DNA of 64,000 bases. It comes from a virus (lineage: Duplodnaviria; Caudoviricetes). The notes under the pieces are model-generated. The model did no database searches. It had not been told where the DNA came from and saw only the letters and a program-made list of their open reading frames with translations. Below, in pieces: positions 3,488 to 62,916 of the stretch. The first letter of the stretch is position 1, and each line of letters begins with the position of its first letter. A program made the position numbers and the translations under genes. The DNA is taken from the IMG/VR virus record IMGVR_UViG_3300020374_000579, positions 3,646 through 67,645 of that record. One strand, given 5' to 3'.

Positions 3488-3913
3488 TTATATTATGGGA
3501 ATGTAAAGACTTTTGAAGTCTTTAAGTGTGATAGAATGTGCAACTAATTCATCTAGGGAATTGGTCTGACCTGGTGTCAAGTTGTACACCTTATCAGCAT
3601 GTATAAACACCGCTCCATCATTTCCTGTAACATGATTACTTATCACTTTCCAGGTAGTTTCGTTAGGATTCAGGTATTTTAAATTGCCTAATGTTTGGTA
3701 CAATAAAATTGCTATTCCTGTTGAACAAAAGTAGCCATGCTCTAGTATTTCAAATGCATTGGGCCAGTCTTTAGGTGTCCAATAATCTAGGTATCTTTGA
3801 CGTATTTTTACTTGGGAAAATGCTTCTAGAACTGCTTCTTCGCTTGGTGCGTTCTGCCTAAGTTCTCTCCACTGATTCAAACGACGAGTGACGTCGGTAG
3901 TTTTTTCAAACAT
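3488..3913 (-). CDS. Hypothetical protein (141 aa)
   Basis: Co-oriented ORF filling the gap between flanking genes; no confident family. Confidence 0.75.
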   Translation of the reverse strand: MFEKTTDVTRRLNQWRELRQNAPSEEAVLEAFSQVKIRQRYLDYWTPKDWPNAFEILEHGYFCSTGIAILLYQTLGNLKYLNPNETTWKVISNHVTGNDGAVFIHADKVYNLTPGQTNSLDELVAHSITLKDFKSLYIPII

Positions 3914-13376: not shown

Positions 13377-14555
13377 TTAGGATTTTTTGCGTCCGGACTT
13401 CATGTTGGCACACCAATGATACATTTTTGACTTCTCACCACTGCTGTTTTTTGCTTTTTTACGGAGGCTTGTTACTGAGCCTTTACAACTTGCACCTGCT
13501 TTTTTAACTCTACCAGGTCTGCTTTTGCCTTTCTTTTTACCATCAGCAAAGTTTTCAACTACCATATATGCTGGTATTTCTTTTTTACCAATGTTTAATG
13601 CTTTTTGCACTCTGTGAAATCCATCCAGTATAGTCTTGCCATCAGCATCTACTACTATAGGATCTGTTGTGTCTGCAAAATTTACATCACCCAAATCACC
13701 TATAATTCTATCAAAGCCTGGTTTATCCATCTGTAAGTCTGCTACTTTAATTGTGGTGAGTTTAGTTTTTTTGTCTTTTAAATACTGCTTTACTTTAACA
13801 CTTAAATTCCTACCTTGCTTTGTAACATCTTGCGACTTATAATTTTCACCTATTTGTTCTAGTTCGTCTATAAATGGTTGTGGGTCCATGCCCTGATTTT
13901 CAAACTCATCTATAAAGTTTCTTAATTCTATTTGATATGATTTCTTTAAAACTTTAGGATCTTCATCTCCTGTAAAATTTTTAATGCCTTTTTTAACAGT
14001 ATTCATATTGTTATCATATCCATGCTCTTCTTCTCTGTCTTGAGTCATATAGTCCCAAACATCTCGTAGCATTTTTACACCATTAATTGTAACATAATCT
14101 CTTTTTACATAAGTTCCTGGAAATGTAACAACTTCACCTTCCATTGCTTTTGCCATTTTTTGTTTCATTAATTCTTCAAAGGTAGCCGCATCACTTGACG
14201 TGTTACTAAAATGGTCAATTAATTCTTCTATTGTAGCATTAACTTTTAAAACATCTAATTTCTTTATACCCATTTGTAGTGCAACATCAAATCTATGATG
14301 TCCATTTACAATATAATTGTTTTTATCTATAACAATAGGTCTTATGCTACCATCTGCAAATCCACGTTTGGCTCTATCATGCATTCCTTTAACACGTTGA
14401 TTTTGTACTGGCATAAGTGTTTCTATGTCTACATTATGTTTGGTATAATCAAAAGGAGAATCTTTTATATCACCTTTTCTAATTTGAGGCATGATATTTC
14501 TAGGAAAGTTTTTATCTGATTTTGGTCTTTCTATTTGTAATTCTATTAATCTCAT
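13377..14555 (-). CDS. Protein with two ParB-N/sulfiredoxin-like domains and a basic C-terminal module
   Basis: RPIVIDKNNYIVNGHHR and DPIVVDADGKTILDGFHR; leader MRLIELQIE. Confidence 0.75.
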   Translation of the reverse strand: MRLIELQIERPKSDKNFPRNIMPQIRKGDIKDSPFDYTKHNVDIETLMPVQNQRVKGMHDRAKRGFADGSIRPIVIDKNNYIVNGHHRFDVALQMGIKKLDVLKVNATIEELIDHFSNTSSDAATFEELMKQKMAKAMEGEVVTFPGTYVKRDYVTINGVKMLRDVWDYMTQDREEEHGYDNNMNTVKKGIKNFTGDEDPKVLKKSYQIELRNFIDEFENQGMDPQPFIDELEQIGENYKSQDVTKQGRNLSVKVKQYLKDKKTKLTTIKVADLQMDKPGFDRIIGDLGDVNFADTTDPIVVDADGKTILDGFHRVQKALNIGKKEIPAYMVVENFADGKKKGKSRPGRVKKAGASCKGSVTSLRKKAKNSSGEKSKMYHWCANMKSGRKKS

Positions 14556-17500
14556 TACTTGAATCCAAATGCAAATTTACCACCTATTCTTGAACTGTAG
14601 TAATTTTTACTGCCATCTATTTCTACTGTACCTTGGAAGTTTGGCGGATACACAGCCTCCCATCCTGTAACTCTTGCATCATTTCCTTGTTTGCCCATTT
14701 TACAATACAACTGTACAATACTGGATTGGTTAAGAAATGCTACACAACCCTGTCCAAACTCTGGACCTGATTGATTAATTGCTCTTGTAACTTTTTTAGC
14801 AAGTAGGGCCAACATAGCATAACCTGTATTAAAGCCTGGAACATCTTGTCTCGGCGTTCCGTAATTAAATAATTCAGTACATGCAGGACTTAATCCAGCA
14901 TAGTCTTGTTTACCTTCTTGAATGTATCCATTAATTTCTTGTTCTAACCCTTGTGGTAAAATTTTGTATAACTCTGCTAATCTAAATGGGCCATCTTTTG
15001 CACTATTGCTTTGTACAATGTTGATAACATTTACTGTAACAGGAAATTGTGCTTTTAATTCTTCTGGTGCTTTAAGTATAGCATCTTGTATGTTCTTAAC
15101 ACTTGCTTTTGCACCTTTACCGCCTTTACTGCTGATACCTACTCTAGTACCATCTGGTGCTGTAAAGTAACTGTCAACAAGTGGGGCATTCATTGCCATG
15201 GGCCAAAATATACTACAACTTGACCAAGGAATACCTCTCAATAAATCTCTTCTGGCATCTTCTGCCTGTCCACCCACCATATCACTCATCAATGCAACTG
15301 GTCCCATAATTTCACCAAAGTAATCTCTTAATGCAGGCAAATTACTTATTTGTCCAGGAAATACAGGGTGTTCTTGCGTGTGTATAGTCTCTAGTGCGTT
15401 TACTAGTGTTTCAGATAGTTCATTATCAGTAGAGTTTGTTTTCACTGCTTGTATGACGTCTATGACCCCATTGAATGGGTCATCTGTCTTTATCAAGTGC
15501 TGTGGATCTATACCTATGTCTAATTTCATTGCTCCAGCAGTTTGTAATTTCCATCCTGAAGGTACTTGACTGTTACCCCATTTACCCATCATATCTGCTG
15601 TTTTTTGTTTGAAGTATCTACCCCAATATGTAATTTTATCATCTAATGCTGGATCTGTTAATACAGCAACACCAAATGCTAAACTGCCTTTATTAGGTAC
15701 ATTTGTCCAGTCTATTTGACTGTTAAGTTCTTGCTCTAATTGTTGTACAAAATCATCTCTTTGTTCAGGAGAATCAAACTCCATTTCATCTGTTGGGTAT
15801 AAATTTACACTTTGAAACTCTAATCTGTCATCACCTTTTAAAAAAGTATCACCTAATACTCTTCCCATTATGCCTTTTGATTCTATTAAACTTCTAACTT
15901 TACTTTTAGACCATTCGTTTAAATCAATTTTATCTTGTTGTTCTTTGGGTAATGCATTTATAAAATGTCTTACAATACCTCTAGCACATGCTTCGTCTCC
16001 TGCTTCGCCTCTTAAATCTCTAAATGCATCTAACATTGCAGGAATTGGTATAGCCTGAAATGCCAACATTTGTTTTTTAAGGTCTCCTACAGGAAAATGG
16101 TCTGCTAGTAAGTCATTTAAAATTTTTGTTGTTTTAATAGTTGGTACACTTTCATCTAAATCTTCTTTAGCCATGTTTGTTGCTGTTGCGTACATAACTG
16201 CTTCTGCATCTTTACCATAACGTTTTTCAAAATCTTTTTTGCTTTTCTTCATACCTTTAACATATTTTTCTTTGTCTTTCTTTTCATCTTTTGATAAAGG
16301 TCTTTCTAATACTTTTGATTCACTTAGTATTGCTAATTGTTCTTGTAAAGGTAATGCATCAAATTTAGCAAACACACTTTCATTTGCTCCGCCTTGTAAT
16401 TCTTGTCTGCCTCTTGCTAATGCACCTTGGAAGTCATTTGGTTCTTTACCTTCTTGATTGTCTCTAATTAAAACCTGTAAAACAGTTTGTTTGAAATTTT
16501 CTTCGTTGTCTGGATTTTTAAGAAATCCTACCAGTCTGTTTACATCTGGTTGTAACATATAATTTTGTATGCCATTTTGCATCAACCAATCAAATCTTTG
16601 ATATTCGTCACGCACAGCATCATAATCTTGTGTAGTTATGTCATCAGATGGATCTCTGCCTCTTGTAACTTCTGCTCTGTCCATTCTTGAACGGGCACCG
16701 TCAGGCATGGCTCTACCACCATCACCGTAAAGTTCACCTACATCATCACCAAGACTGCCGTCAGCATTTTGTCTAAAGTAGTTACCACCACTTACTGTAT
16801 AATTTGTTTTAATATATTCAACGGCAGTTTTTACACTTGCTACCCATCTTTCCACACAACAAACAGTTGGATCTGGTTCTGGTCTCCAGTTGTGGTCGCC
16901 GTCAAATGTTCTAGAAACTTTTTCTAATATGTTTGGACCTTGATTATCTACACCTCTTTCTATTTTAAAGAAGTCTGCTAAGTTAGGCCAATTTGCCGCA
17001 CCTTGAATAGTATTAGATGCTTCTCTTTCCATATGTTCGACACCAGCCGCTTTTATAATTTTTTTGTTTTCTATGGCTCTTACACCTTTTGGTGTTTGTT
17101 CCATAACTTTCTGAATAGCACTATAGAAACTAACACTATCATCCTTGTTCATCAAGTCATCGACCATTTGTTTTATTTTGCCTGCTTCTGCACCGTGATA
17201 CTTTTTAAAGTCATATGCGGCATAGGCTTTCTGGTCATTATCATCTCGCAATGTCCAAGTTATACCACTAGTACTGTTTAAAGGTTCTCCTGAAAACGGA
17301 TTTTTTAATTCTTCGGATGGGATAAGTTCTTCTACATCTCCCATTCCTGCTCTACCGTCCAACTTTCCAGTAAATTCAATTCTAAACATTTTTGATAATT
17401 TAGTTCTATCAGTACCGTCTATTTGAACATATTTGTCTTTGTTGTCTAAAGTTTTATAGTCTATTCCATACACAGAAGCAAACTTTTCAAATAACTTGCC

Positions 17501-20500
17501 ATAGTTTTTAATTCTCCAGTTTTGACTCATATTGCCAACTTTTTGATATATTGCTATAATTTCACTACCGCCTACAGCATCATTTAGTGGTCCCCAATGT
17601 GCCGCTGGAACAACAAAGAATATGCCTGGTCTAGATCCTTTGTTTACATTTTCTGCACCATTAATCATATCTTTTAGCATGGTTTCACCTGGATCTGCAA
17701 TTTTTACATCTGATGTTGCCGTTCTCTGTAGATCCAATTCATCATAATAATTCTTTTTCATAAATGTAATAGAATGTGCAGGTATGTTTATTGTAGCATA
17801 TGACTTGCTACGAATTTTCTTTTCAAAATTTTCTCTGTCTTTGGATAATTGTTGCTTACGTTTAATTGAATTGTCTTGACTGTCAAAACCATTTTGTACA
17901 AATATTTTATCTAAGCCTCTCATAAATTCTGATAGACCTTTGAATCTTTGTGCTATAATTGTTTTTACTTCTGGAAATTTAAAATAGCCAGGGTAACGTT
18001 CTTTGTTTCTATAGTAAGCACCCAAAGACTCTCTAATTGAGTCAGTGATAAAATCCTGCATGTTGTTTATTGTTCTTTCGTCTGTGGTATTTTTAATAAT
18101 ATCATCTAAAGTACCTTGAATTCTTTCATACTTATATGGTTCAATACCAAGATAAGGTGCACCATCTCTTTCACCTAATAAATCATATAAATCTTCTTTT
18201 TCTTTGTCTGACATGTTTGGTAGATCCTGTACTTCATCTCTTTCTATGCCAATTATTTCTTCCCAATCTGGTTTGTCATAGGCGTCCCTACCATCTCTAT
18301 CAAGTCCAATTTTATTGGTGTTGAAAAATTTCTCAAACATAGGAACCATTAGTTTTAAACTTTTTATTGCTTTAGATTTGTCTGTTTCGAATTGATTTTC
18401 TAAAAACAAAAATCTTCTTCTCAATAACATAGTGTAATTGCTTAATGAAACATCTTCATAACTGTCATCACCATAAATGTTAGGATTATGATTTCTATTA
18501 ACTGGTTCATTGTAAGAGTCAAATTGTTTTACAAATGAGACCATATTGTTAAAACTTTCTTTGTCAAAAACCATTCCTGGTTGCACAAAATAGGTTCCTG
18601 AGTTATATGTTGATGTTGTTAAGCCGTTATAAAAATCATTAAATTGTCTTTTACCACTTGCGTCTTTGAATAGTCTTTTTGTATCTTCTATTACTTCTGT
18701 TTTATCTATATTAGAATCTTTCCCAATACGCAAATTTATACCAAGTGTTGTAAGTTCTTTCAACACAGTAGGATTAAACTGTTTGCTGTTCATTACATTC
18801 CATATACCTTTTACTAAAGATTCAACTTGTGGTGCTGATATATAGTCGGGTCTACTAATTATATCTTTTGATAGTAATTTTTCTATACCTTTTCTAATAA
18901 TTTCCATCCTCACTTGTGGTGTTAATTTGCCGGCGCCACTACCTTTAACGTTATCACCAAATGCAATATCGTCTATGGATATTTTTAAATTTTCGTCTAA
19001 GTCCTTGTATGATATTTCATATTTTTTCAAAAATGTTCTTAATGCACCAATGCTTTTTGCGTTTGGTTGTTGTCTTGCTACACCTTGAGCAACATCCACA
19101 GCCAACATTCCAAGTGCTTCACTTAAATCTTTTAAACCTTGTAGTTTTTCTTGAGATGCACGACTACTAGGTTTTTGCATATCTGGTTTGAAGTAGGCTT
19201 TGATTGACCTATCATTTTCTGATTTTTCTTCTTCTTTAATTTTTTCGCCTTTGATACTGTCTAAATCTCTTTTTAAAGAACTGTCAAAATCATCTAAACT
19301 AGCATCTGTGTTATTAACGTATTTCATCCATTGTTTTTTCCATTTAAGGTCTGCTTCTGGATCTAAATAAGTTTTGGCGAGTTTTAATTGTTCCATTGCT
19401 CTTAACATTTGTTTAGTAAAGTCTAAATATTTGTTAGAACTGATTATTGCTTTAGTTGAGTCTAATACAGGATCGCTGGCAATATCTTCATATCTGCCTT
19501 TTAAATCTTCTACTTCTGATTCATCACCTGCCGCAACTTCACTTGCTTTGTTTAATAATCTAGACAATGCTTTGACATAGTCGCCTTCATATTGGTTTGT
19601 ATGTCCTGCAATCATTGTGGTTGCATATCTTACTGTTGCTTTAAATACTTTGTCAAAATCACGTTCGTAATCTTCCCCACCTGCTATTCTAAATTCTATA
19701 AGTTTGGTATTGGTTTTTGAATCTGTTTGACCTTTAAAATGTATTGCACGGAATTTGTCATCACTTATATGTTGTTCTAAAAATTTTTCTGCTATTTTAA
19801 TACCTTCTGATCCGGTTTTTTGTTTTAATTGTCCAATTGCTTTTTGTAATTCTTTGTATTGGCTTTTAGTGTAAGTGTTAGCCTTTCTCATAAATTCATT
19901 TAACAAGTATTGGTCACCTAACAACACAGCCATCTTAACTCTATTTGCTTTTACTATACTTGAACCAGGATCATGATTTACAATTTCTCCTTCTTGTGGA
20001 TTATAACTCATTGTTACATGTAAACCAGTACTGTTATTTGTAAGTGCGCCTTTATCCTCTAACATTGTAAAGAACTTTTTCATTTCTGTCAACATTCTTC
20101 TAGGAGTACTAAAAACAGGTGATATAATTTCTGCACCTGTGCCATATCCATCTATACTACTATCGCTTTCTACTGCATAATTTGTTGTGCTACCATCAGT
20201 GTTACCATAATCACCGTAATCCACACTGGTATCTGTAAAAGCACTATTGTTTTCCATCCAATTAGACACTATGTCAGCAACTTCTCCTAAATTGCTACCC
20301 ACAGAGTAATCAATACCATAATCATCACAGAATGAACTCATACTGTAGTATTGGTCATTTATCCAATCATCATAATCATAACTTTCACTGGCTTCTTCGT
20401 ATGCCGCTTGTCTTACATCATCATCTTCTTTTGCTAATTCTTCTAAATAATCTCTAAAGTCTTGTCCTCTAAATTCATCAACATATTCTCTGGCCCAATT

Positions 20501-21586
20501 TTCTTCTTCATATCCGTATATATCTGACAGTTCTTCAGCACCCTCTTCTTCAAATCTTTCATCACCAAATTCTCTTCTAAGCACATCTTCTCTGTAATCA
20601 TCCCAATCTGCTTGTTCTATGCCTTCATTTTCTATAAATTCATTGATATAATCTTCGTCATCTTCACGTTGAGTAACATACTCATCAATAGCACCATCCA
20701 TGTATTCATCTACTTTGTATTCATATATCCAGTCTGTAAAATTCTCTGCTATACTGTCCCAATCAACTCCACCATATTGGTCATCTATTTCACTCAGTGA
20801 TAAATTATCAACATCATCACTTTCGCCTTCTATGTTTTCCCAAACAGTTTCTGCCTCCCAACCACAACGTATTTGTGCATCAAGAGAACTGTTTATGATT
20901 TCTTTTCTATTAAAGTTTATTTCAAATAATTCTTCATGTGCTTCTTTTAAACTTAATCTTGCAAGTTGTTTTACTTTTCTTTTTTCTTGTTTAACTTTTG
21001 GCTTTAATTTGTTTAATGCTTTTCTATGTACTTTTTTAGCAATCTTGCCTTCTGCTAAATCAGGATCAACTGAAGCAACTAAGTTTGCCATTTTGTTTGC
21101 AATACCTTGACCTTTTGCAAAATTACCTTTTGTTTTACTAATTATTCCTGGACCACTAGGCATATTTTGCATTTGCTCTGCATCTTCTGGGTCATATGCA
21201 TCTACATTTTTATTTTGGTCAATGATTTCGTATTCTCCATCTTCGTCTTGTACTACCATTGCATCTGGTATATCACCATCGCCTACTGGAGATACTACTG
21301 TTTTGTTTTTATCGTCTTGTCCTACAACTACTGCACCTTTTTCTATGTCTCTAGCATTTTTTTGTTTTGGTTCAGGCATTTCAGGTTTTTCTTCTGGTGC
21401 TTTTTGTCCAAGTGTTGGACTACCAGCATCTGGTTTTTTAGCCTGTTGTGTTGTAGAAGGACTGTTTACTTTGTTTGCTTTTGCACCAGCACCTGTTTGT
21501 TGTTGAGATGTGGGTGTGCTGGCACCAGGTTTCATACCATATTCTAAAAGGATGCTTTCTAATGTTTTAACATCTTTAAACTTCAT
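14555..21586 (-). CDS. 2343-aa multidomain protein: amidoligase (COOH-NH2 ligase type 2-like) plus C-terminal restriction-endonuclease-like domain
   Basis: CGWEAE, VESDSSI, GAEIISP, TGLHVT, KFRAIHF, IEFRIAGG; C-terminal YFGE...PLVDSYF...GISSK; leader MKFKDVKTLESILLE. Confidence 0.7.
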   Translation of the reverse strand: MKFKDVKTLESILLEYGMKPGASTPTSQQQTGAGAKANKVNSPSTTQQAKKPDAGSPTLGQKAPEEKPEMPEPKQKNARDIEKGAVVVGQDDKNKTVVSPVGDGDIPDAMVVQDEDGEYEIIDQNKNVDAYDPEDAEQMQNMPSGPGIISKTKGNFAKGQGIANKMANLVASVDPDLAEGKIAKKVHRKALNKLKPKVKQEKRKVKQLARLSLKEAHEELFEINFNRKEIINSSLDAQIRCGWEAETVWENIEGESDDVDNLSLSEIDDQYGGVDWDSIAENFTDWIYEYKVDEYMDGAIDEYVTQREDDEDYINEFIENEGIEQADWDDYREDVLRREFGDERFEEEGAEELSDIYGYEEENWAREYVDEFRGQDFRDYLEELAKEDDDVRQAAYEEASESYDYDDWINDQYYSMSSFCDDYGIDYSVGSNLGEVADIVSNWMENNSAFTDTSVDYGDYGNTDGSTTNYAVESDSSIDGYGTGAEIISPVFSTPRRMLTEMKKFFTMLEDKGALTNNSTGLHVTMSYNPQEGEIVNHDPGSSIVKANRVKMAVLLGDQYLLNEFMRKANTYTKSQYKELQKAIGQLKQKTGSEGIKIAEKFLEQHISDDKFRAIHFKGQTDSKTNTKLIEFRIAGGEDYERDFDKVFKATVRYATTMIAGHTNQYEGDYVKALSRLLNKASEVAAGDESEVEDLKGRYEDIASDPVLDSTKAIISSNKYLDFTKQMLRAMEQLKLAKTYLDPEADLKWKKQWMKYVNNTDASLDDFDSSLKRDLDSIKGEKIKEEEKSENDRSIKAYFKPDMQKPSSRASQEKLQGLKDLSEALGMLAVDVAQGVARQQPNAKSIGALRTFLKKYEISYKDLDENLKISIDDIAFGDNVKGSGAGKLTPQVRMEIIRKGIEKLLSKDIISRPDYISAPQVESLVKGIWNVMNSKQFNPTVLKELTTLGINLRIGKDSNIDKTEVIEDTKRLFKDASGKRQFNDFYNGLTTSTYNSGTYFVQPGMVFDKESFNNMVSFVKQFDSYNEPVNRNHNPNIYGDDSYEDVSLSNYTMLLRRRFLFLENQFETDKSKAIKSLKLMVPMFEKFFNTNKIGLDRDGRDAYDKPDWEEIIGIERDEVQDLPNMSDKEKEDLYDLLGERDGAPYLGIEPYKYERIQGTLDDIIKNTTDERTINNMQDFITDSIRESLGAYYRNKERYPGYFKFPEVKTIIAQRFKGLSEFMRGLDKIFVQNGFDSQDNSIKRKQQLSKDRENFEKKIRSKSYATINIPAHSITFMKKNYYDELDLQRTATSDVKIADPGETMLKDMINGAENVNKGSRPGIFFVVPAAHWGPLNDAVGGSEIIAIYQKVGNMSQNWRIKNYGKLFEKFASVYGIDYKTLDNKDKYVQIDGTDRTKLSKMFRIEFTGKLDGRAGMGDVEELIPSEELKNPFSGEPLNSTSGITWTLRDDNDQKAYAAYDFKKYHGAEAGKIKQMVDDLMNKDDSVSFYSAIQKVMEQTPKGVRAIENKKIIKAAGVEHMEREASNTIQGAANWPNLADFFKIERGVDNQGPNILEKVSRTFDGDHNWRPEPDPTVCCVERWVASVKTAVEYIKTNYTVSGGNYFRQNADGSLGDDVGELYGDGGRAMPDGARSRMDRAEVTRGRDPSDDITTQDYDAVRDEYQRFDWLMQNGIQNYMLQPDVNRLVGFLKNPDNEENFKQTVLQVLIRDNQEGKEPNDFQGALARGRQELQGGANESVFAKFDALPLQEQLAILSESKVLERPLSKDEKKDKEKYVKGMKKSKKDFEKRYGKDAEAVMYATATNMAKEDLDESVPTIKTTKILNDLLADHFPVGDLKKQMLAFQAIPIPAMLDAFRDLRGEAGDEACARGIVRHFINALPKEQQDKIDLNEWSKSKVRSLIESKGIMGRVLGDTFLKGDDRLEFQSVNLYPTDEMEFDSPEQRDDFVQQLEQELNSQIDWTNVPNKGSLAFGVAVLTDPALDDKITYWGRYFKQKTADMMGKWGNSQVPSGWKLQTAGAMKLDIGIDPQHLIKTDDPFNGVIDVIQAVKTNSTDNELSETLVNALETIHTQEHPVFPGQISNLPALRDYFGEIMGPVALMSDMVGGQAEDARRDLLRGIPWSSCSIFWPMAMNAPLVDSYFTAPDGTRVGISSKGGKGAKASVKNIQDAILKAPEELKAQFPVTVNVINIVQSNSAKDGPFRLAELYKILPQGLEQEINGYIQEGKQDYAGLSPACTELFNYGTPRQDVPGFNTGYAMLALLAKKVTRAINQSGPEFGQGCVAFLNQSSIVQLYCKMGKQGNDARVTGWEAVYPPNFQGTVEIDGSKNYYSSRIGGKFAFGFK

Positions 21587-21888: not shown

Positions 21889-22329
21889 TTACCATTTCCT
21901 ACATGACCAATAACGTGCTTTTGTTTTTGGTCCTGGGTTTTCACAATTATGTCTTGCTCTAAAACTTTTACGTCTTGCTGGATTAGACTTTTTAATTCTC
22001 ATGTTAGGATCACCAAAATTTACTTTTTTAGTATTACCTGTTTTAGGATCTTTAACATATACCTTGAACTTCTTAACATCACCTTGCATAGGTTTATTAA
22101 GTTTTACTTTACGTCCTTGATATTCTGCTTCAAACATACCCTCTTCATCGTATGCAAGATATCCAAATTCTTCATGAAAGTCTTGATTGTCTTCTAGTGT
22201 AATAGATTCACCGACTAGTTTTCCTCTAAAAGGATGTGGACTTTCATTACCCATATTAGGTTTTATTTTTTTAGGTTTTTTTGTGTTTGCCTTTACCTGG
22301 TCGGCTTCAAATATTTCACTTAATTTCAT
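21889..22329 (-). CDS. Putative head-internal protein; C-terminal module recalls DUF6321
   Basis: MKLSEIFE/A leader; KVNFGDPNM...SFRARHNC...ARYWSCRKW. Confidence 0.65.
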   Translation of the reverse strand: MKLSEIFEADQVKANTKKPKKIKPNMGNESPHPFRGKLVGESITLEDNQDFHEEFGYLAYDEEGMFEAEYQGRKVKLNKPMQGDVKKFKVYVKDPKTGNTKKVNFGDPNMRIKKSNPARRKSFRARHNCENPGPKTKARYWSCRKW

Positions 22330-23040: not shown

Positions 23041-23071
23041 AAAAAAAATCCCCACACAAGGTGGGGATTTT
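23041..23071 (-). terminator. Rho-independent terminator
   Basis: 11-bp stem AAAATCCCCAC/GTGGGGATTTT, 5-nt loop, run of 8 U on the minus strand. Confidence 0.88.
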
Positions 23072-23091: not shown

Positions 23092-23424
23092 TTACACTAC
23101 TCTGTATTCTCCAGCAGTCACAGTTGCGTTTGCACCGTTTCCTGTTAGCATTGGTTGAATAGCCGCTAATAATCTAGCCGCGGTAGGGGAACCTTCAACA
23201 CCAACGTGCATTACTGTAGCAGAAATGCTGTTGATTAGTACTGGAGTACAAATTGTTGATAAGCCTTGAACAACTAATTCACCTTTCTGTGCATTACCAC
23301 TTGAAAAACCGAATTGGCTGATATTGTCAGTACCATCTACTTCATCAATAATGAAGTGACTTAAAGTACCAACCATAAGTTGACTGTTATCAAGAACTGC
23401 ACCATTTACTCTTGTTTGTGCCAT
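23092..23424 (-). CDS. Putative abundant small virion (capsid decoration-like) protein
   Basis: 110 aa; own TATAAATA promoter, strong SD and own terminator. Confidence 0.6.
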   Translation of the reverse strand: MAQTRVNGAVLDNSQLMVGTLSHFIIDEVDGTDNISQFGFSSGNAQKGELVVQGLSTICTPVLINSISATVMHVGVEGSPTAARLLAAIQPMLTGNGANATVTAGEYRVV

Positions 23425-24152: not shown

Positions 24153-25226
24153 TTATACCTTTTTACGACCACTTGCCCAGTAGCCTGCAATAGCACCTAT
24201 ACCAGCACCAGTTTTACTACCTAACTTATTTTTTGTAAGTTTAGGCACAATTTTACTACCCACATAAGCACCACCAACTGTAGCGGCGGCTCTTTTTAAT
24301 GCACTAGTAGGTTTTTCTTTGTTTACATTATCATATCTTCTTGTGGTTTTCATAGCCATCAAGTGTTGGAATACTTCTGCACCTTTGCCTTTTAATCTAA
24401 TACGTTGCACTAGTTTAGATACTATGTATTGTTTTTGACTGTACTTCAATTGAGGCCAATCCAAAATTAAACGTCTTAACTGTTTGAATTGTGCATCTTT
24501 AATTTGTAATTGTTGTTCTAATCTTATCAAATAAGAACTTGCATCACTTCTGCTAGGAGTATATCTAGCAATTTTATTCATAAACATGTAATGCTGTCTG
24601 TTGTTAAAATTAAGTTTATCTAATACTTTTCTTTCTTTGTTTTTTAATTTTAATGACTTGTAATTAGGATTATCAACAGCAAATGCCAGCATGTATATAT
24701 CAGTTGCACTTGTTCTAAAGGCGGCATAAGGACCATATTGTGTTGTTTTTCTTGCGTATGCTGTACCATAATCTTGTTGTTTACTGTCTAAGGCAAACAT
24801 ATAAACTGCAAGTGTTTCTAAATATAATAAGTCTGCAATGTCTCTTCCAGTTAGTCTATTGTAACTAGCAGTGAATCTAAACAATCTACTTTCACTGATT
24901 TCAGAATCTATTAATTGATACATTTCTGTTTTAACATTTTCTTCAACTTTATAAATGCTGTACAACACAGGATTTCCATCTATGCCTAAGTCATCATATG
25001 AATGTCCACGTTGTATAGGTTTTGCTTCTTGGCGTTCATCAAAATCTCTATAAACATCTTGATAAATTTTGTGTATTTGGTCATCATCGTGCCCATAGTT
25101 ACATTGGTCAGAAAAACCTTCGTAATGAATAACAAACTTACCCATGTCTGTGTCCACAGTATCTTTGCCAACATCATCTGGAGTAAGGCTTCTTATGAAA
25201 CTTTGTACTTCTCTTGGTATGTTCAT
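24153..25226 (-). CDS. Hypothetical protein, probable virion protein
   Basis: 357 aa; C-terminal glycine-zipper-like GGAYVG...GAGIGAIAG. Confidence 0.75.
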   Translation of the reverse strand: MNIPREVQSFIRSLTPDDVGKDTVDTDMGKFVIHYEGFSDQCNYGHDDDQIHKIYQDVYRDFDERQEAKPIQRGHSYDDLGIDGNPVLYSIYKVEENVKTEMYQLIDSEISESRLFRFTASYNRLTGRDIADLLYLETLAVYMFALDSKQQDYGTAYARKTTQYGPYAAFRTSATDIYMLAFAVDNPNYKSLKLKNKERKVLDKLNFNNRQHYMFMNKIARYTPSRSDASSYLIRLEQQLQIKDAQFKQLRRLILDWPQLKYSQKQYIVSKLVQRIRLKGKGAEVFQHLMAMKTTRRYDNVNKEKPTSALKRAAATVGGAYVGSKIVPKLTKNKLGSKTGAGIGAIAGYWASGRKKV

Positions 25227-26497
25227 GTTGTTGGTTTTCCTGTATCAAAATTTAATCTGCTAAATTCTAATCTGTCTACTATTTTTAAAGCATTACCCAT
25301 TCTGTCCACAGCAACAAAACCTTCCTCGCCTGTTACTTCAAAACCTTTTTCTGATTGTACAAATGTGTCCATAACTCTAATTTGTTCTAGTTTTCTCACA
25401 ATTTTTACTTTTGCTTCTATAATTTTTAAATATAAATCATAAACACTTACAATACTAGGTATATGTTCTCTGATAAATTTTACACCTTGGATCATTAGGT
25501 CTGTTTTAGCATCTATAGTTTTTTGTGTTTTAACTTTGTCTATTTCTTTAGTCATAAAATCTATATACTTTTGTATAAAATCTTTGGCAAATTTAGTTGG
25601 ATCTTGTTCAAGGGCACCGGCTCTAATACTATTATTTACATGTGCTTTTAGTTGTTGTAAAAAATTTTTTCCTACTAAATCTGTTCCTTGTTGTAGCCAT
25701 GCAAATGTTTCACCATCTACACTTTTTAAATATTCGTCAGCAACACTAATAGCCTGCATGATGTCTGCACTTTCTTCTGCTGTAAATGTTACAGTACCAC
25801 TAAGGTCTTTGATAATTGCATCTCTGTGCCAAACACCTGTTGCTTTACCTAACACACTACTGTCGAATCCAAACTTTGCAGTAGTATCTGCCAGTGTTGG
25901 GCCGCCAACATATTCTGTATGCCACACAATACCAAAATCACTCTTTGCTATGTCTTTTGCAAGTTGGCTTTTAGTAGGTACTGCATAAGTTAATGTGTTT
26001 GGTGTAAATGTTAAATAATCTTCACCATCTATGCTTTGTCTTTTTAATGTGTCTTTTGCAAATAAAAAATCACCTTGTGCTACAGTGGACCATTTTAGTT
26101 TACTTAACATGTTCAATGCTAACTTTAATTTGTCTTGTAATCCTTCTGCAGGGTGGTTTGCTTCTATATCTTTGGTGGTAAAATTAATTTTAGGTTTTCT
26201 TGCAAACACACCTTTGGTGCCTACAAAGAACTTTCCAGTTTCAGGATCTTTGCCTGCCACAATGGCTGGAGCACCGTCCCATTTTGTTGTCATTGATACT
26301 GGAGAGTTTGTACTGCCGTCTAACATTTCATGTAGACTGTACAAATAGTTTATTGCTTCTTTGGCACCGTCATATCCTTTATTGAATATGTTATCTTCTA
26401 AATGCTCTAAATGAGTATTCTTGCCTTCTGCTTCTGCAATAGCACTTTCTGTTAATATACTAGTAACAAGAGGTTTTGTGAACTCTTGGAACTTCAT
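25223..26497 (-). CDS. ATP-dependent ligase-fold nucleotidyltransferase (RNA ligase-like; recalls DUF6267)
   Basis: Motif I TKWDG, III AQGDF, IV EEGFVAV, V LKIV; leader MKFQEFTKPLVTSILTE. Confidence 0.7.
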   Translation of the reverse strand: MKFQEFTKPLVTSILTESAIAEAEGKNTHLEHLEDNIFNKGYDGAKEAINYLYSLHEMLDGSTNSPVSMTTKWDGAPAIVAGKDPETGKFFVGTKGVFARKPKINFTTKDIEANHPAEGLQDKLKLALNMLSKLKWSTVAQGDFLFAKDTLKRQSIDGEDYLTFTPNTLTYAVPTKSQLAKDIAKSDFGIVWHTEYVGGPTLADTTAKFGFDSSVLGKATGVWHRDAIIKDLSGTVTFTAEESADIMQAISVADEYLKSVDGETFAWLQQGTDLVGKNFLQQLKAHVNNSIRAGALEQDPTKFAKDFIQKYIDFMTKEIDKVKTQKTIDAKTDLMIQGVKFIREHIPSIVSVYDLYLKIIEAKVKIVRKLEQIRVMDTFVQSEKGFEVTGEEGFVAVDRMGNALKIVDRLEFSRLNFDTGKPTT

Positions 26498-26498
26498 A

Positions 26499-27710
26499 CT
26501 AAACTCCTGCTAGTTTCTTCAGTTCTTCTAATTCAATGGCTTCATTTAGTTCATCAATTGCTTTAGTTGGAACTAATAAAACATCAGCACCTTTCTTTTC
26601 TGATATCAAAACCTTATAACCACATTGTTCCCAAGTGATACCATTTGCTTCAAAAATTGTATTTAGGGCATCATATGATTCTTTTGCCATTGCTCTAACT
26701 TTTGGCATAAACGATCCATACCATTCTGGTTCAGTTTTTTTCAAAGGAGAGTTTTTTAACATAGCACCAAATTGAATTGCATAATCATCTAAGCCGGATA
26801 TGTCAGGTCGTTGTTTTTTAAAAGCCGCTAATTTATCAATCCATTGTTTAGCATATTCAATTTTTTCTGAATCAGTTTTAGCATTTTTGAAAAAAGTAAG
26901 CGGTTCTTCCAATGCAAATCTCAACTGTCCATTATGACGGTCTCTGATGTCTCCACCAGTTTTTTCTGGTGCGGGACCTTTTTTCATCACATTAGCCATT
27001 GCTCTACCAATACCTGCACCTGCTACTGCACCAACTTTTTGTGCCGTACTTGCATCTGGGTCCATTCTTGTTTTACTAGCAAGTGGTCCACCAATTGCTT
27101 TATTAATTGCATCTGCTCCGGCTTGCTTCATTTTTTCTATTGCACCAGGACCTTGTCCTACACCTTTTGCAATGCTTGTAAGTTCCATAGAACGAGCATC
27201 TTTTGGTGCAAGTGGGTAAACACCTTTAACAGGTTTAGCATATTGAGTGTCAAATGTTGTTGATCCATCTTTTTCTTTTTTGGCTTTTACACCATCAACT
27301 TCCATCCATTGACTACCTTTATCGGTTTTTTCCAATCGATAAAATATACCATCTGGATGCTGTACCACTCTACCAACCTTCATGTCTTTTCTGTGTTTGG
27401 CAAAGTCGCTAACAACACCACCTTTTTTGGATTTTTTTATATTATTTTGGTTTTGTTGGGCTATTGCTCGGTTAATTGCATTTTGCTGTGATTTTGCTAA
27501 TACGCCACCTGCTGTTTTGTTTCCTAGTTTATCACCTTTATCAATTTTCTGCTTTGAACTTTGACCTTGTGGTTTGGGTTTTGAAGCATACTGCCGACCG
27601 GCTTGTGTGCCTTTAGCAAATTTTCCCCCAGCACCACGTTTGATTCCCATTTCGGCATCTTTTTTCTGTTGGTCTGGCGTAATTTCTTGTACTAAATCAT
27701 TAAATTTCAT
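26499..27710 (-). CDS. Basic hypothetical protein with capsid-targeting-like leader (start revised to 27710)
   Basis: MKFNDLVQE/I; ends ELEELKKLAGV. Confidence 0.75.
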   Translation of the reverse strand: MKFNDLVQEITPDQQKKDAEMGIKRGAGGKFAKGTQAGRQYASKPKPQGQSSKQKIDKGDKLGNKTAGGVLAKSQQNAINRAIAQQNQNNIKKSKKGGVVSDFAKHRKDMKVGRVVQHPDGIFYRLEKTDKGSQWMEVDGVKAKKEKDGSTTFDTQYAKPVKGVYPLAPKDARSMELTSIAKGVGQGPGAIEKMKQAGADAINKAIGGPLASKTRMDPDASTAQKVGAVAGAGIGRAMANVMKKGPAPEKTGGDIRDRHNGQLRFALEEPLTFFKNAKTDSEKIEYAKQWIDKLAAFKKQRPDISGLDDYAIQFGAMLKNSPLKKTEPEWYGSFMPKVRAMAKESYDALNTIFEANGITWEQCGYKVLISEKKGADVLLVPTKAIDELNEAIELEELKKLAGV

Positions 27711-27963
27711 TATTACTCTCCGCAACTATTTTTTTAATGCCACGAGAGAATTTTTTTGAATCACCTGATTTGATAGAGTTAATAAGTCTACGTTCTAAGT
27801 CTAATGCCTCTTGAGGACTATATGACTCACGTAGTATTGCTTTGATATTTTCAGCACTACTGACTAAATGTTCAACTCTATTTTCGAGAACATGGTGGCG
27901 ACTTCTGTCTACACTGATAGAATTTAATTCTTCTAAAATACTTCTCGATTTTCTTTCTGACAT
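27700..27963 (-). CDS. Hypothetical protein (87 aa)
   Basis: AGGA SD and late promoter GATAAATAT at 27987-27995. Confidence 0.75.
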   Translation of the reverse strand: MSERKSRSILEELNSISVDRSRHHVLENRVEHLVSSAENIKAILRESYSPQEALDLERRLINSIKSGDSKKFSRGIKKIVAESNNEI

Positions 27964-27997
27964 TTGTTGTTTCCTATGTTATATGCATATTTATCTT

Positions 27998-29380
27998 TTA
28001 TAGGTCATTTTTCTTCATGAACTCCTGCATATTCAGTGCTGTACTAATAGTATTTGTTGCATCAGTGTCCTCTGTTTTAACAGAACCTGTGCGTTTTAGT
28101 TGGTCAATCAGTGTTCCTGTAGTCATTGTCATTGAATCTTCATCTTCTTCATCCAAATCCTCAACTCTAAGTGTATCAGGATTAAATTTTAAGTCTACTT
28201 TACTGCCAACACCACTACTAGAACGTGTTTTCATAAACTGTATTTGATATCTGCCACGTTCTCGCATAGCATTACTTGTAAATATACCTACAACATTATC
28301 TGCTGTTTGTATTTTACTAATACCACCTGCAATATGATGGTGGTCAAATTCTATTTCTTCTACTGCACCTCTATTCAACTGCGATGCAGTAACAAATAAT
28401 GTACCACTTTCAACTGCTAAATTACGCAACTCCTCAGATACATATTTGTCTTTAATAAACAAATCCCCTGGACTAACTTTTGCACTAATAGGACTCATTA
28501 AATCCAAATAGTCAACCAAAATACAGTCTACTTTTACATCTGTGTTTATTTCATACTCTCTAACAAATGCTCTAATATCATTGGCAGTAACACCACTGCT
28601 CATTTGTTTTACTCTAAACTTACCAGCACCTTTACCTTTCATACGCACTTTCAAATCTACGTCATCCATGTTTTTCATTATCTCTCTTGTGCTGTATTCA
28701 CTTACCATAGCATCTAGACGCATACTAATTAATTGTTCGCTCAACTCTAAACTAATGTAAACAACATTCATTCCTGCCAGTGCCCAATTCACTCCTAAGT
28801 TCTGTAAAAATAAACTTTTACCTGCACCACTACCACCAGCAAATATTGTAATCTCGCCTCTGTTTAATCCACCATACAGTTTTTGGTCAAACTTTTTCCA
28901 ACCTGTGCTAACTGCACCTGCTTGACTTTTTATGTATTGTAATCTTTCTTTTGGATTTTCAAAGTATTCAAGTCCCAAGTCTTTAACAAGACTAACTTGA
29001 CTTGCTTCTTTTATTTTATTTTCTACTGCACCATAGTCTGCTTTTTCCAATAAGTCAGTACTGTCTAATATTGCTTTTTCTAATGCTTTATGTCTACAAA
29101 ATCTTTCGAAACTATCTAAAAACCAATCTGAATGATTAGATGTAATACCATCTATACGTTCTAGTTCTAATCCTGTTGTTGCTTTGATTTGGTCAATAGT
29201 AGGAATAGCACTATATTCTTCACTATGCTGTTTTAAAAATTTAATTGTGTCTTGATATTTCTTGTTAAACATATAAGGTTCAACAATATTGTTTACTCTC
29301 ACAAACAACTCTGGATCTGTGACTAAGAAATTCAAATACATTTCCTGTATTTCTTCTGTGTAGTTTTCTATGTTATCCAT
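27998..29380 (-). CDS. DnaB-family replicative helicase (T4 gp41-like)
   Basis: Walker A AGGSGAGKS, ILVDYLDL, TASQLNR, MKTR. Confidence 0.95.
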   Translation of the reverse strand: MDNIENYTEEIQEMYLNFLVTDPELFVRVNNIVEPYMFNKKYQDTIKFLKQHSEEYSAIPTIDQIKATTGLELERIDGITSNHSDWFLDSFERFCRHKALEKAILDSTDLLEKADYGAVENKIKEASQVSLVKDLGLEYFENPKERLQYIKSQAGAVSTGWKKFDQKLYGGLNRGEITIFAGGSGAGKSLFLQNLGVNWALAGMNVVYISLELSEQLISMRLDAMVSEYSTREIMKNMDDVDLKVRMKGKGAGKFRVKQMSSGVTANDIRAFVREYEINTDVKVDCILVDYLDLMSPISAKVSPGDLFIKDKYVSEELRNLAVESGTLFVTASQLNRGAVEEIEFDHHHIAGGISKIQTADNVVGIFTSNAMRERGRYQIQFMKTRSSSGVGSKVDLKFNPDTLRVEDLDEEDEDSMTMTTGTLIDQLKRTGSVKTEDTDATNTISTALNMQEFMKKNDL

Positions 29381-62795: not shown

Positions 62796-62916
62796 TATAA
62801 TCTCCTAATATTAATATGTTAGTACGAATATTTATCTAGAAATTGTAAAAAAGCGGTATTATAAAACTACCAGGGTACAAGGTTTTTGTAGGTTTTGATA
62901 AATATAGAAATTTTTT

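Follow-up and report, generated by a model that had tools for sequence, protein, structure and literature searches.

A T4-type leader on a DUF6267 protein with a ligase-like fold

Why does a protein with a ligase-like fold begin with a leader of the kind found on the internal capsid proteins of phage T4? The question is raised by an open reading frame (ORF) on the minus strand, at 25223-26497, of a 64,000-nucleotide stretch of viral DNA (the window; positions 3,646 to 67,645 of IMG/VR record IMGVR_UViG_3300020374_000579). The ORF encodes 424 residues from an ATG that is preceded, ∼9 nt 5', by a GGAG ribosome-binding site; the features of this protein and of its gene cluster described below lie on the same strand. 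A sequence-only reading had described the product as an RNA-ligase-fold protein with a leader resembling that of T4 IPI, and had taken it for a pre-packaged enzyme that counters tRNA- or rRNA-cutting defences at the moment of injection. We find that the protein is a full-length member of DUF6267 (Pfam PF19782; E = 1e-104, 351 bits against a cut-off of 27), with residues 27-421 covering profile positions 1-376, and that it has no other Pfam match at E ≤ 10. The reading that we prefer, at a probability of roughly one half, is that it is a divergent ligase-type lysine nucleotidyltransferase, expressed late and loaded into the capsid by means of its leader, that seals or nucleotidylates nucleic-acid ends.

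The source record is 67.6 kb long, with an estimated completeness of ∼19%. Identical or nearly identical proteins are present on contigs of 322-345 kb (one identical copy on a contig of roughly 329 kb), indicating that the window is a fragment of the genome of a giant, uncultured marine phage, and the genes around the ORF are of T4 type: NrdAB, primase, gp41-type helicase, UvsX, gp32-type single-stranded DNA-binding protein and large terminase. The family itself is very large. Of 8,000 candidates scored, 6,748 proteins belong to DUF6267, and at an identity threshold of 50% the family has no fewer than 2,491 clusters; in the PHROG collection the window protein falls in phrog_455, which has no assigned function. 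Among cultured phages DUF6267 occurs in 467 records, nearly all of cyanomyoviruses and always annotated as hypothetical, and its other carriers include Pelagibacter phage HTVC008M, Methylophilales phage Melnitz and Stenotrophomonas phage DLP6. Every cultured cyanomyovirus that we checked has the gene, in truncated form in S-SM1, Syn9, S-CREM2 and S-SCSM1. Few uncharacterised genes of marine T4-like phages are as widespread as that for DUF6267, which has thousands of metagenomic clusters besides the cultured records; none of the literature searched mentions it.

Fold and conserved residues of DUF6267

An alignment of 109 relatives (34-68% identity) served both for structure prediction and for the analysis of conservation. 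The AlphaFold (AF2) model of the protein has a predicted local distance difference test (pLDDT) score of 90.6 and a predicted template modelling (pTM) score of 0.88. In it, a disordered N terminus (residues 1-21) is followed by a long helix that spans 33-60; residues 68-235 make up a beta-rich domain, residues 240-373 a bundle of six helices, and residues 377-418 a C-terminal part of four strands and a helix. We aligned this model exhaustively with 48,161 PDB chains, and the first eight rows were all RNA ligases, with Z scores of 8.2-6.7 over 174-208 aligned residues: NgrRnl (5cot; Z 8.2, 190 residues), Trl1 (7.6 and 7.5), REL1 (7.5), T4 Rnl2 (7.4) and T4 Rnl1 (7.0) are among them. DNA ligases came next, at Z 5-6. 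When residues 25-240 were modelled separately (pLDDT 90.4), the top 29 rows of the search were again all ligases (Z 5.8-3.3), and capping enzymes appeared only from row 39; among viral models, the first matches outside DUF6267 were phage RNA ligases. On these models, the core of DUF6267 is very probably a ligase-type adenylyltransferase domain.

Six positions are invariant in the 109 relatives (K72, D74, E392, G393, K405 and R409), and at G75, Q141, G142 and D143 conservation reaches at least 90%, so that the motifs they form are not chance matches. Motif I, K72-W-D74-G75 (26273..26284), lies at the end of a strand (68-72) and contains the lysine predicted to accept the nucleotidyl group. A motif III-like element, Q141-G142-D143 (26069..26077), within the sequence Q141-G-D143-F-L-F, lies in strand 139-147; this Q-G-D143 and Y171 are candidates for motifs III and IIIa that were assigned by order only. 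Motif IV, E392-G393-F-V (25313..25324), and a motif V-like element, K405-I-V-D-R409 preceded by L (25271..25285), close the series. An hhalign comparison with T4 Rnl1 gave a single match, local and of 19 columns (E = 0.1), which places residues 390-406 on Rnl1 223-241 and equates E392-G393 with E227-G228 of Rnl1 motif IV and K405 with K240 of motif V. The motifs I, III, IV and V named in the sequence-only reading are present, with key residues that are invariant or at least 90% conserved, and its remark that no DNA-ligase OB domain is evident agrees with the model, in which the chain closes with motif V and a single helix (409-418). Neither PF01068 nor PF04679 is matched by the protein at E ≤ 10.

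It is instructive to compare this arrangement with that of the known ATP-dependent RNA ligases (NgrRnl/Rnl5, 5cot; T4 Rnl2, 1s68 and 2hvq; REL1, 1xdn; T4 Rnl1, 9do4; Trl1, 9r3w and 6n0t), with which DUF6267 shares its fold class. Like the minimal members of that group, DUF6267 has the motif order I, III, IV, V, an invariant lysine in T-K-x-D-G (T-K72-W-D-G, as against T-K99-E-D-G in T4 Rnl1) and no OB domain. It differs from them in having no detectable sequence homology: besides the Pfam result, single-sequence and profile searches of the PDB gave spurious coiled-coil matches only, hhalign produced nothing meaningful with T4 Rnl2, and a search of the ESM Atlas gave no named lead. Where RNA ligases append a specificity domain at the N or C terminus, DUF6267 carries its helical bundle of ∼135 residues (240-373; 25379..25780) ahead of motif IV, and the all-helical C-terminal tRNA-specificity domain of the Rnl1 type is not present. 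The bundle is poorly conserved except at N288 and K363. Natural short variants, S-SM1 gp189 (324 residues) and S-SCSM1_257 (294 residues), keep the N- and C-terminal blocks of the core, and their shortening probably falls within the bundle region. Motif V reads K-x-V-x-R in place of the K-x-K of RNA ligases. Finally, the core opens with a family signature for which we can name no counterpart, K-N-T-H-L-E-H-L-E-D (residues 26-35; 26393..26422); its H32 never varies, and at least 90% of the sequences keep H29. Against the ATP-dependent DNA ligases (T4 gp30 and those of Chlorella virus and African swine fever virus) the model scores Z 5.2-6.2, and DUF6267 shares with them the adenylyltransferase fold as well as motifs I, III, IV and V; those enzymes have in addition an OB domain and motif VI, and DUF6267 has neither.

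The N-terminal leader and probable late expression

The part of the protein ahead of the signature is of a different kind. Residues 1-24 (MKFQEFTKPLVTSILTESAIAEAE; 26426..26497) share with T4 IPI (MKTFKEFT...ITE|A) the pattern MK-F-x-E-F-T, a spacer of ∼9 residues and I/L-T-E, as read from the T4 record. The likeness to IPI that had been proposed is thus borne out, and the IPI sequence given with that proposal agrees letter for letter with the record. T4 IPII and IPIII start MKTYQEFIAE, and the window leader conforms to the general pattern of T4-type capsid-targeting sequences (CTS), in which aromatic or hydrophobic positions are followed by L/I-x-E. Two candidate sites for a prohead protease are present, L15-T16-E17|S18 and I20-A21-E22|A23. 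In having such L/I-x-E sites the leader, which is disordered in the model and ends where the core starts, resembles those of the T4 cargo proteins IPI, IPII, IPIII and Alt, which are trimmed by gp21; the likeness is one of sequence only, and the mature part of the protein is unrelated to any T4 internal protein.

We surveyed the N termini of 147 complete DUF6267 representatives. In every one the conserved core begins at K-N-x-H-L-E-H-L-E-D and what precedes it is variable: 86 of the 147 have a short CTS-like leader, and 25 have long N-terminal domains, most of which finish with [LIVM]-x-E directly before the core. Thirty of the 86 match M-x-x-aromatic-x-x-hydrophobic-[LIVM]-x-E in the exact register of IPIII (MKTYQEFIAE|A), as in MKSFKQFLTE. 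Experiments on IPIII have shown that its targeting depends on positions 4 and 7 and its cleavage on positions 8 and 10 (PMC9026906). Within the window's own clade the leader and an [LI]-[TS]-E-S site are conserved, and the linker after them drifts. A gp21-type prohead protease is encoded in all four of the other DUF6267-bearing genomes tested, and in the T4 control.

The gene appears to be expressed late, as one of a translationally coupled series. The genes that start at 27963, 27710, 26497, 25226 and 24144 lie at most 8 nt apart or overlap; the stop of the upstream gene lies 1 nt ahead of the DUF6267 start, and the DUF6267 stop is overlapped by the downstream gene through ATGA. A late-promoter-like motif, GATAAATA (27988..27995), is found 31 nt 5' of the first gene of the operon, right after the helicase gene. 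The published late promoter of cyanomyoviruses is NATAAATA (PMC2984593), which we also find ahead of the DUF6267 units of S-PM2 and S-SZBM1. The distribution of ATAAATA across the window is strongly biased by strand, with 25 copies on the coding strand against 3 on the opposite one, and the motif is often placed 28-41 nt ahead of the starts of structural-type genes. GATAAATA itself occurs on the minus strand at 62835, 53536, 50778, 32001, 27994, 23018, 11187 and 6624, in each case 22-41 nt 5' of a start codon, and several of the genes downstream of these sites have PHROG matches annotated 'virion structural protein'. Judged by motif and position, the GATAAATA sites are probably T4-type late promoters. 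Exact TATAAATA was not enriched, and a sigma-70 scan gave background level.

The late expression, the translational coupling and the T4-type leader together make it most likely that the protein is loaded into the prohead. From N to C terminus it consists of a detachable leader, the K-N-T-H-L-E-H-L-E-D element with its long helix, and an RNA-ligase-like adenylyltransferase domain with a helical bundle inserted, and no further domain. The steps that we infer for it are as follows: the protein would enter the prohead, where a gp21-type protease would cut it behind L-T-E17 (or I-A-E22), and would be delivered with the DNA; K72 would be charged with a nucleotidyl group (AMP, donated by ATP or perhaps by NAD+), with E392 and K405/R409 holding the nucleotide; and the enzyme would then seal or nucleotidylate a nucleic-acid end. 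In short, the DUF6267 protein is probably an enzyme for strand sealing that travels within the capsid.

Proposed capsid cargo and strand sealing, and the alternatives

Several observations weigh against a packaged, catalytically active ligase-type enzyme. On the side of the fold, Foldseek against the PDB gave no match at E ≤ 1e-3, either for the whole model or for the subdomain (ligases are nonetheless among the best rows for the whole model), and the structural Z scores are moderate, with a maximum of 8.2. On the side of the chemistry, the second lysine of the motif V K-x-K is replaced by V407; from its position and invariance, R409 might stand in for it. On the side of the packaging, 19 of the 147 representatives have no leader at all, so that packaging is not intrinsic to the family, and the leader of the window protein could be an ordinary N-terminal extension. 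No gene for a prohead protease or a capsid protein turned up in the 67.6-kb record, as it spans only ∼19% of the genome.

Also to be set on this side are the virion proteomes. We checked four published sets (S-SM1/S-PM2/Syn9, S-SZBM1, S-CREM2 and S-SCSM1) for orthologues of DUF6267, which in these phages are leaderless or truncated, and the protein is reported in none of them. DUF6267 is T4-GC71, which is not in the virion table for S-SM1, S-PM2 and Syn9, where GC190, 1453, 1454, 1455, 425 and 426 of the same block are; S-SZBM1_141 (DUF6267) is not among the 30 virion proteins detected, where _136, _139 and _140 are; and the truncated homologues of S-CREM2 and S-SCSM1 do not carry the virion-protein mark. 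These cyanophage proteins begin MAKNTHLEH or MATQNKHLEH, with no leader, and S-SM1 gp189 and Syn9 gp183 have N termini of non-CTS type. Their NMNAT-like neighbours that are detected in virions begin MKKFSAFLNE or MRFRQFIIE, which are leaders of CTS type. The presence of the tag thus tracks virion detection in the cyanophages, which supports the conclusion that the tag is functional and hence that the tagged copy in the window is packaged; by this analogy, packaging of the leader-bearing protein is plausible. The virion NMNAT-like proteins (T4-GC190; S-SM1 gp190, S-SZBM1_140, S-SCSM1 ORF91 and S-CREM2 ORF154) share with the window protein the kind of leader only, since they are HxGH nucleotidyltransferases of another fold and chemistry.

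Some virion proteins were considered as DUF6267 and rejected. The virion-detected 'cytidyltransferase' T4-GC190 (Sullivan et al. 2010) was first taken for DUF6267 because sizes and coordinates looked alike; S-SM1 gp190 is unrelated to our query, and GC190 is the adjacent HxGH (NMNAT-like) enzyme. S-CREM2 ORF112 and S-SCSM1 ORF90 were likewise set aside, the true truncated homologues lying elsewhere in those genomes. The database label 'cytidyltransferase' has also spread from GC190 to unrelated neighbours (S-SM1 gp191 and Syn9 gp185). S-SCSM1_257 (L032:2907-3791), which is DUF6267-like and leaderless, stands amid small genes of unassigned function, distant from the helicase locus; its position and size indicate that DUF6267 also has untagged, truncated forms elsewhere in genomes.

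If the protein is a nucleic-acid ligase, which strands does it seal? One answer is that marine T4-like phages have their 'missing' DNA ligase in DUF6267, which would work late and mainly in the cytoplasm to seal nicks in replicated DNA before packaging, with the leader incidental or a tether to the prohead. T4 DNA ligase is required for encapsidation. S-SM1, Syn9, S-PM2, S-SZBM1 and HTVC008M all have DUF6267 and lack both PF01068 and PF01653, while T4 has gp30 and no DUF6267, so that DNA sealing must be regarded as a serious alternative. Homologues of g30 and rnh have not been found in cyanomyoviruses, and the existence of unrecognised distant homologues has been suggested (PMC2984593; also PMC1079782). 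The position of DUF6267, usually downstream of the gp41 helicase gene, and the leaderless state of the cyanophage copies, unreported in virions, fit such a role as well. The absence of the OB domain and motif VI, which are common to all known DNA ligases, the best structural matches to RNA ligases, and the late-promoter-like motifs that precede the gene in place of replication-phase signals weigh against a replicative function, however. Phage DLP_6, moreover, carries a canonical ligase together with a leader-bearing DUF6267, gp066, whose leader reads MMKFTQFLAE|S, and host LigA could explain the missing gp30. Taken together, we consider a mainly cytoplasmic DNA ligase unlikely, if still worth serious attention.

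The answer originally proposed, that an RNA ligase packaged beforehand would rejoin, upon injection, tRNA or rRNA cleaved by anticodon nucleases of the host, in the manner of T4 Rnl1 with Pnkp, fares worse. Of that interpretation, the ligase-type nucleotidyltransferase fold without an OB domain and the recurrent leader of T4 capsid-targeting type both are supported, and RNA ligases, including T4 Rnl1, Rnl2 and the fungal tRNA ligase Trl1, are the nearest folds; the repair of tRNA or rRNA is not supported. We searched the proteins of the surrounding 20-kb cluster for a Pnkp-like kinase/phosphatase and for Walker A, DxDxT, HxGH, HD, 2H and Pol-beta motifs and found none, so no kinase, phosphatase or 2H/HD end-healing motif accompanies the gene; family searches of the neighbouring genes gave no RNA-repair partner either. 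In the absence of a Pnkp-like partner in the window, a role in tRNA repair is unsupported. The lack of an Rnl1-type C-terminal tRNA-binding domain points the same way, as do the recurrent fusion partners, which are an NMNAT-like enzyme and unassigned domains and not Pnkp. PrrC-type nucleases are not known from the hosts of these marine phages. A point in favour comes from HTVC008M, where a protein with a Walker A motif (GPGSGKT) that starts MIPFILKE (AGE60463; L003:8724-9386) is encoded between DUF6267 and the NMNAT-like gene and could be a kinase partner. Overall, RNA repair at injection seems to us very improbable.

The NMNAT-like partner suggests a further possibility, namely that DUF6267 transfers nucleotides together with this enzyme and does not act on strand breaks, for example by NAD+-dependent adenylylation with nicotinamide mononucleotide (NMN) recycled by the partner, or by adding AMP or a cap to a protein or to a nucleic-acid end; a variant is that catalysis has been lost and the protein is a structural component of the head. 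About 10 of 150 representatives are fused to a cytidylyltransferase/NMNAT-like domain, in both domain orders, and one of these, S-PM2d138 (L002:6992-8767), is a leaderless DUF6267 joined to the NMNAT-like T4-GC190 domain. The NMNAT-like gene immediately adjoins DUF6267 in P-HM2, S-SM1 (gp190, L024:257-1420), Syn9 and S-SZBM1. In addition, the H-L-E-H-L-E-D element and its helix sit, as far as position goes, where NAD+-dependent ligases have the NMN-binding domain Ia, and motif V is atypical. Against nucleotide transfer with such a partner, tblastn found no NMNAT-like gene in the window, and the structural scores of NAD+-dependent ligases (Z 3.3-3.5) are below those of ATP-dependent ones; the strict invariance of catalytic-type residues argues against a purely structural protein. 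We regard this group of explanations as quite improbable.

The preferred reading, a late and capsid-loaded nucleotidyltransferase, would bear on the family at large. More speculatively, and with considerable doubt on our part, DUF6267 would be a new and very large branch of the ligase superfamily and the long-missing strand-sealing enzyme of marine T4-like phages without gp30 (cyanomyoviruses, pelagimyophages and their giant relatives), modular with an NMNAT-like partner and perhaps coupled to NAD+, which in many lineages, including that of the window, would have been turned into injected capsid cargo by the addition of a T4-type targeting peptide. Should the lysine nucleotidyltransferase or ligase activity prove true, it would fill a gap noted since 2005-2010, that no recognisable DNA ligase is present in these phages. 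The tagged and untagged copies of DUF6267 amount to a natural experiment on how T4-type phages recruit an enzyme as injected cargo, and a leader rule, by which a tagged protein is expected in virions, could be used to predict which proteins uncultured phages carry in their capsids.

Genes around the DUF6267 locus

The helicase gene serves as the anchor of synteny. In the window it lies at 27998..29380 (phrog_19, E = 1e-73; DnaB_C), and a gp41-type helicase is found upstream of DUF6267, with one to several genes between, in S-PM2, HTVC008M, S-SM1, S-SZBM1 and Syn9; in DLP_6 a primase/helicase gene lies ∼7.5 kb upstream. The first gene of the operon (27700..27963, 87 residues) matches phrog_11854, 'virion structural protein', with E = 1.4e-13, and it also precedes DUF6267 in three relatives (L008, L012 and L020). 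The second gene, immediately upstream of DUF6267 (26499..27710, 403 residues from its ATG), has the leader MKFNDLVQEI and is conserved in relatives; it has no family, Pfam or PDB relatives.

Two further genes of the cluster are linked to DUF6267 by gene fusions. The downstream gene (24153..25226) encodes 357 residues with a Gly-rich basic tail and matches nothing in Pfam or the PDB. Its product is homologous, over residues 103-300, to the C-terminal extensions of two proteins in which DUF6267 is fused, P0157 (E = 3e-14) and P0171 (E = 1.5e-8). The C-terminal domain of the protein encoded at 21889-22329 (minus strand; residues 63-146, phrog_7595) shares 56% identity with the domain at the N terminus of a third fusion, P0184, and is also encoded directly after the NMNAT-like gene of HTVC008M (L003:11290-11547); no known family was found for it.

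Leaders of the same general type are concentrated in this part of the window. Between 9472 and 27710 (minus strand), about ten otherwise unrelated ORFs start with M-[KR]-[ILF]-x-[DE]-hydrophobic and have L/I-x-E within ∼20 residues; the ORF starts in this ∼18-kb run are 9834, 12066, 14555, 21586, 21885, 22329, 24144, 26497 and 27710, and outside it just one such start (53508) occurs in the window. The sole convincing terminator-like hairpin of the cluster, of 11 pairs followed by a T run, lies at 23045-23071 (minus strand), just past the ORF at 23092-23424. One ORF of the run, at 14555-21586 (minus strand), encodes 2343 residues with the leader MKFKDVKTLESILLE and K-L-D-G at residue 1408; it is 49% identical to its counterpart in one relative (L016) and shows a weak match to Amidoligase_2, below the cut-off, over residues 451-532. 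Its product may be a giant capsid-cargo polyprotein.

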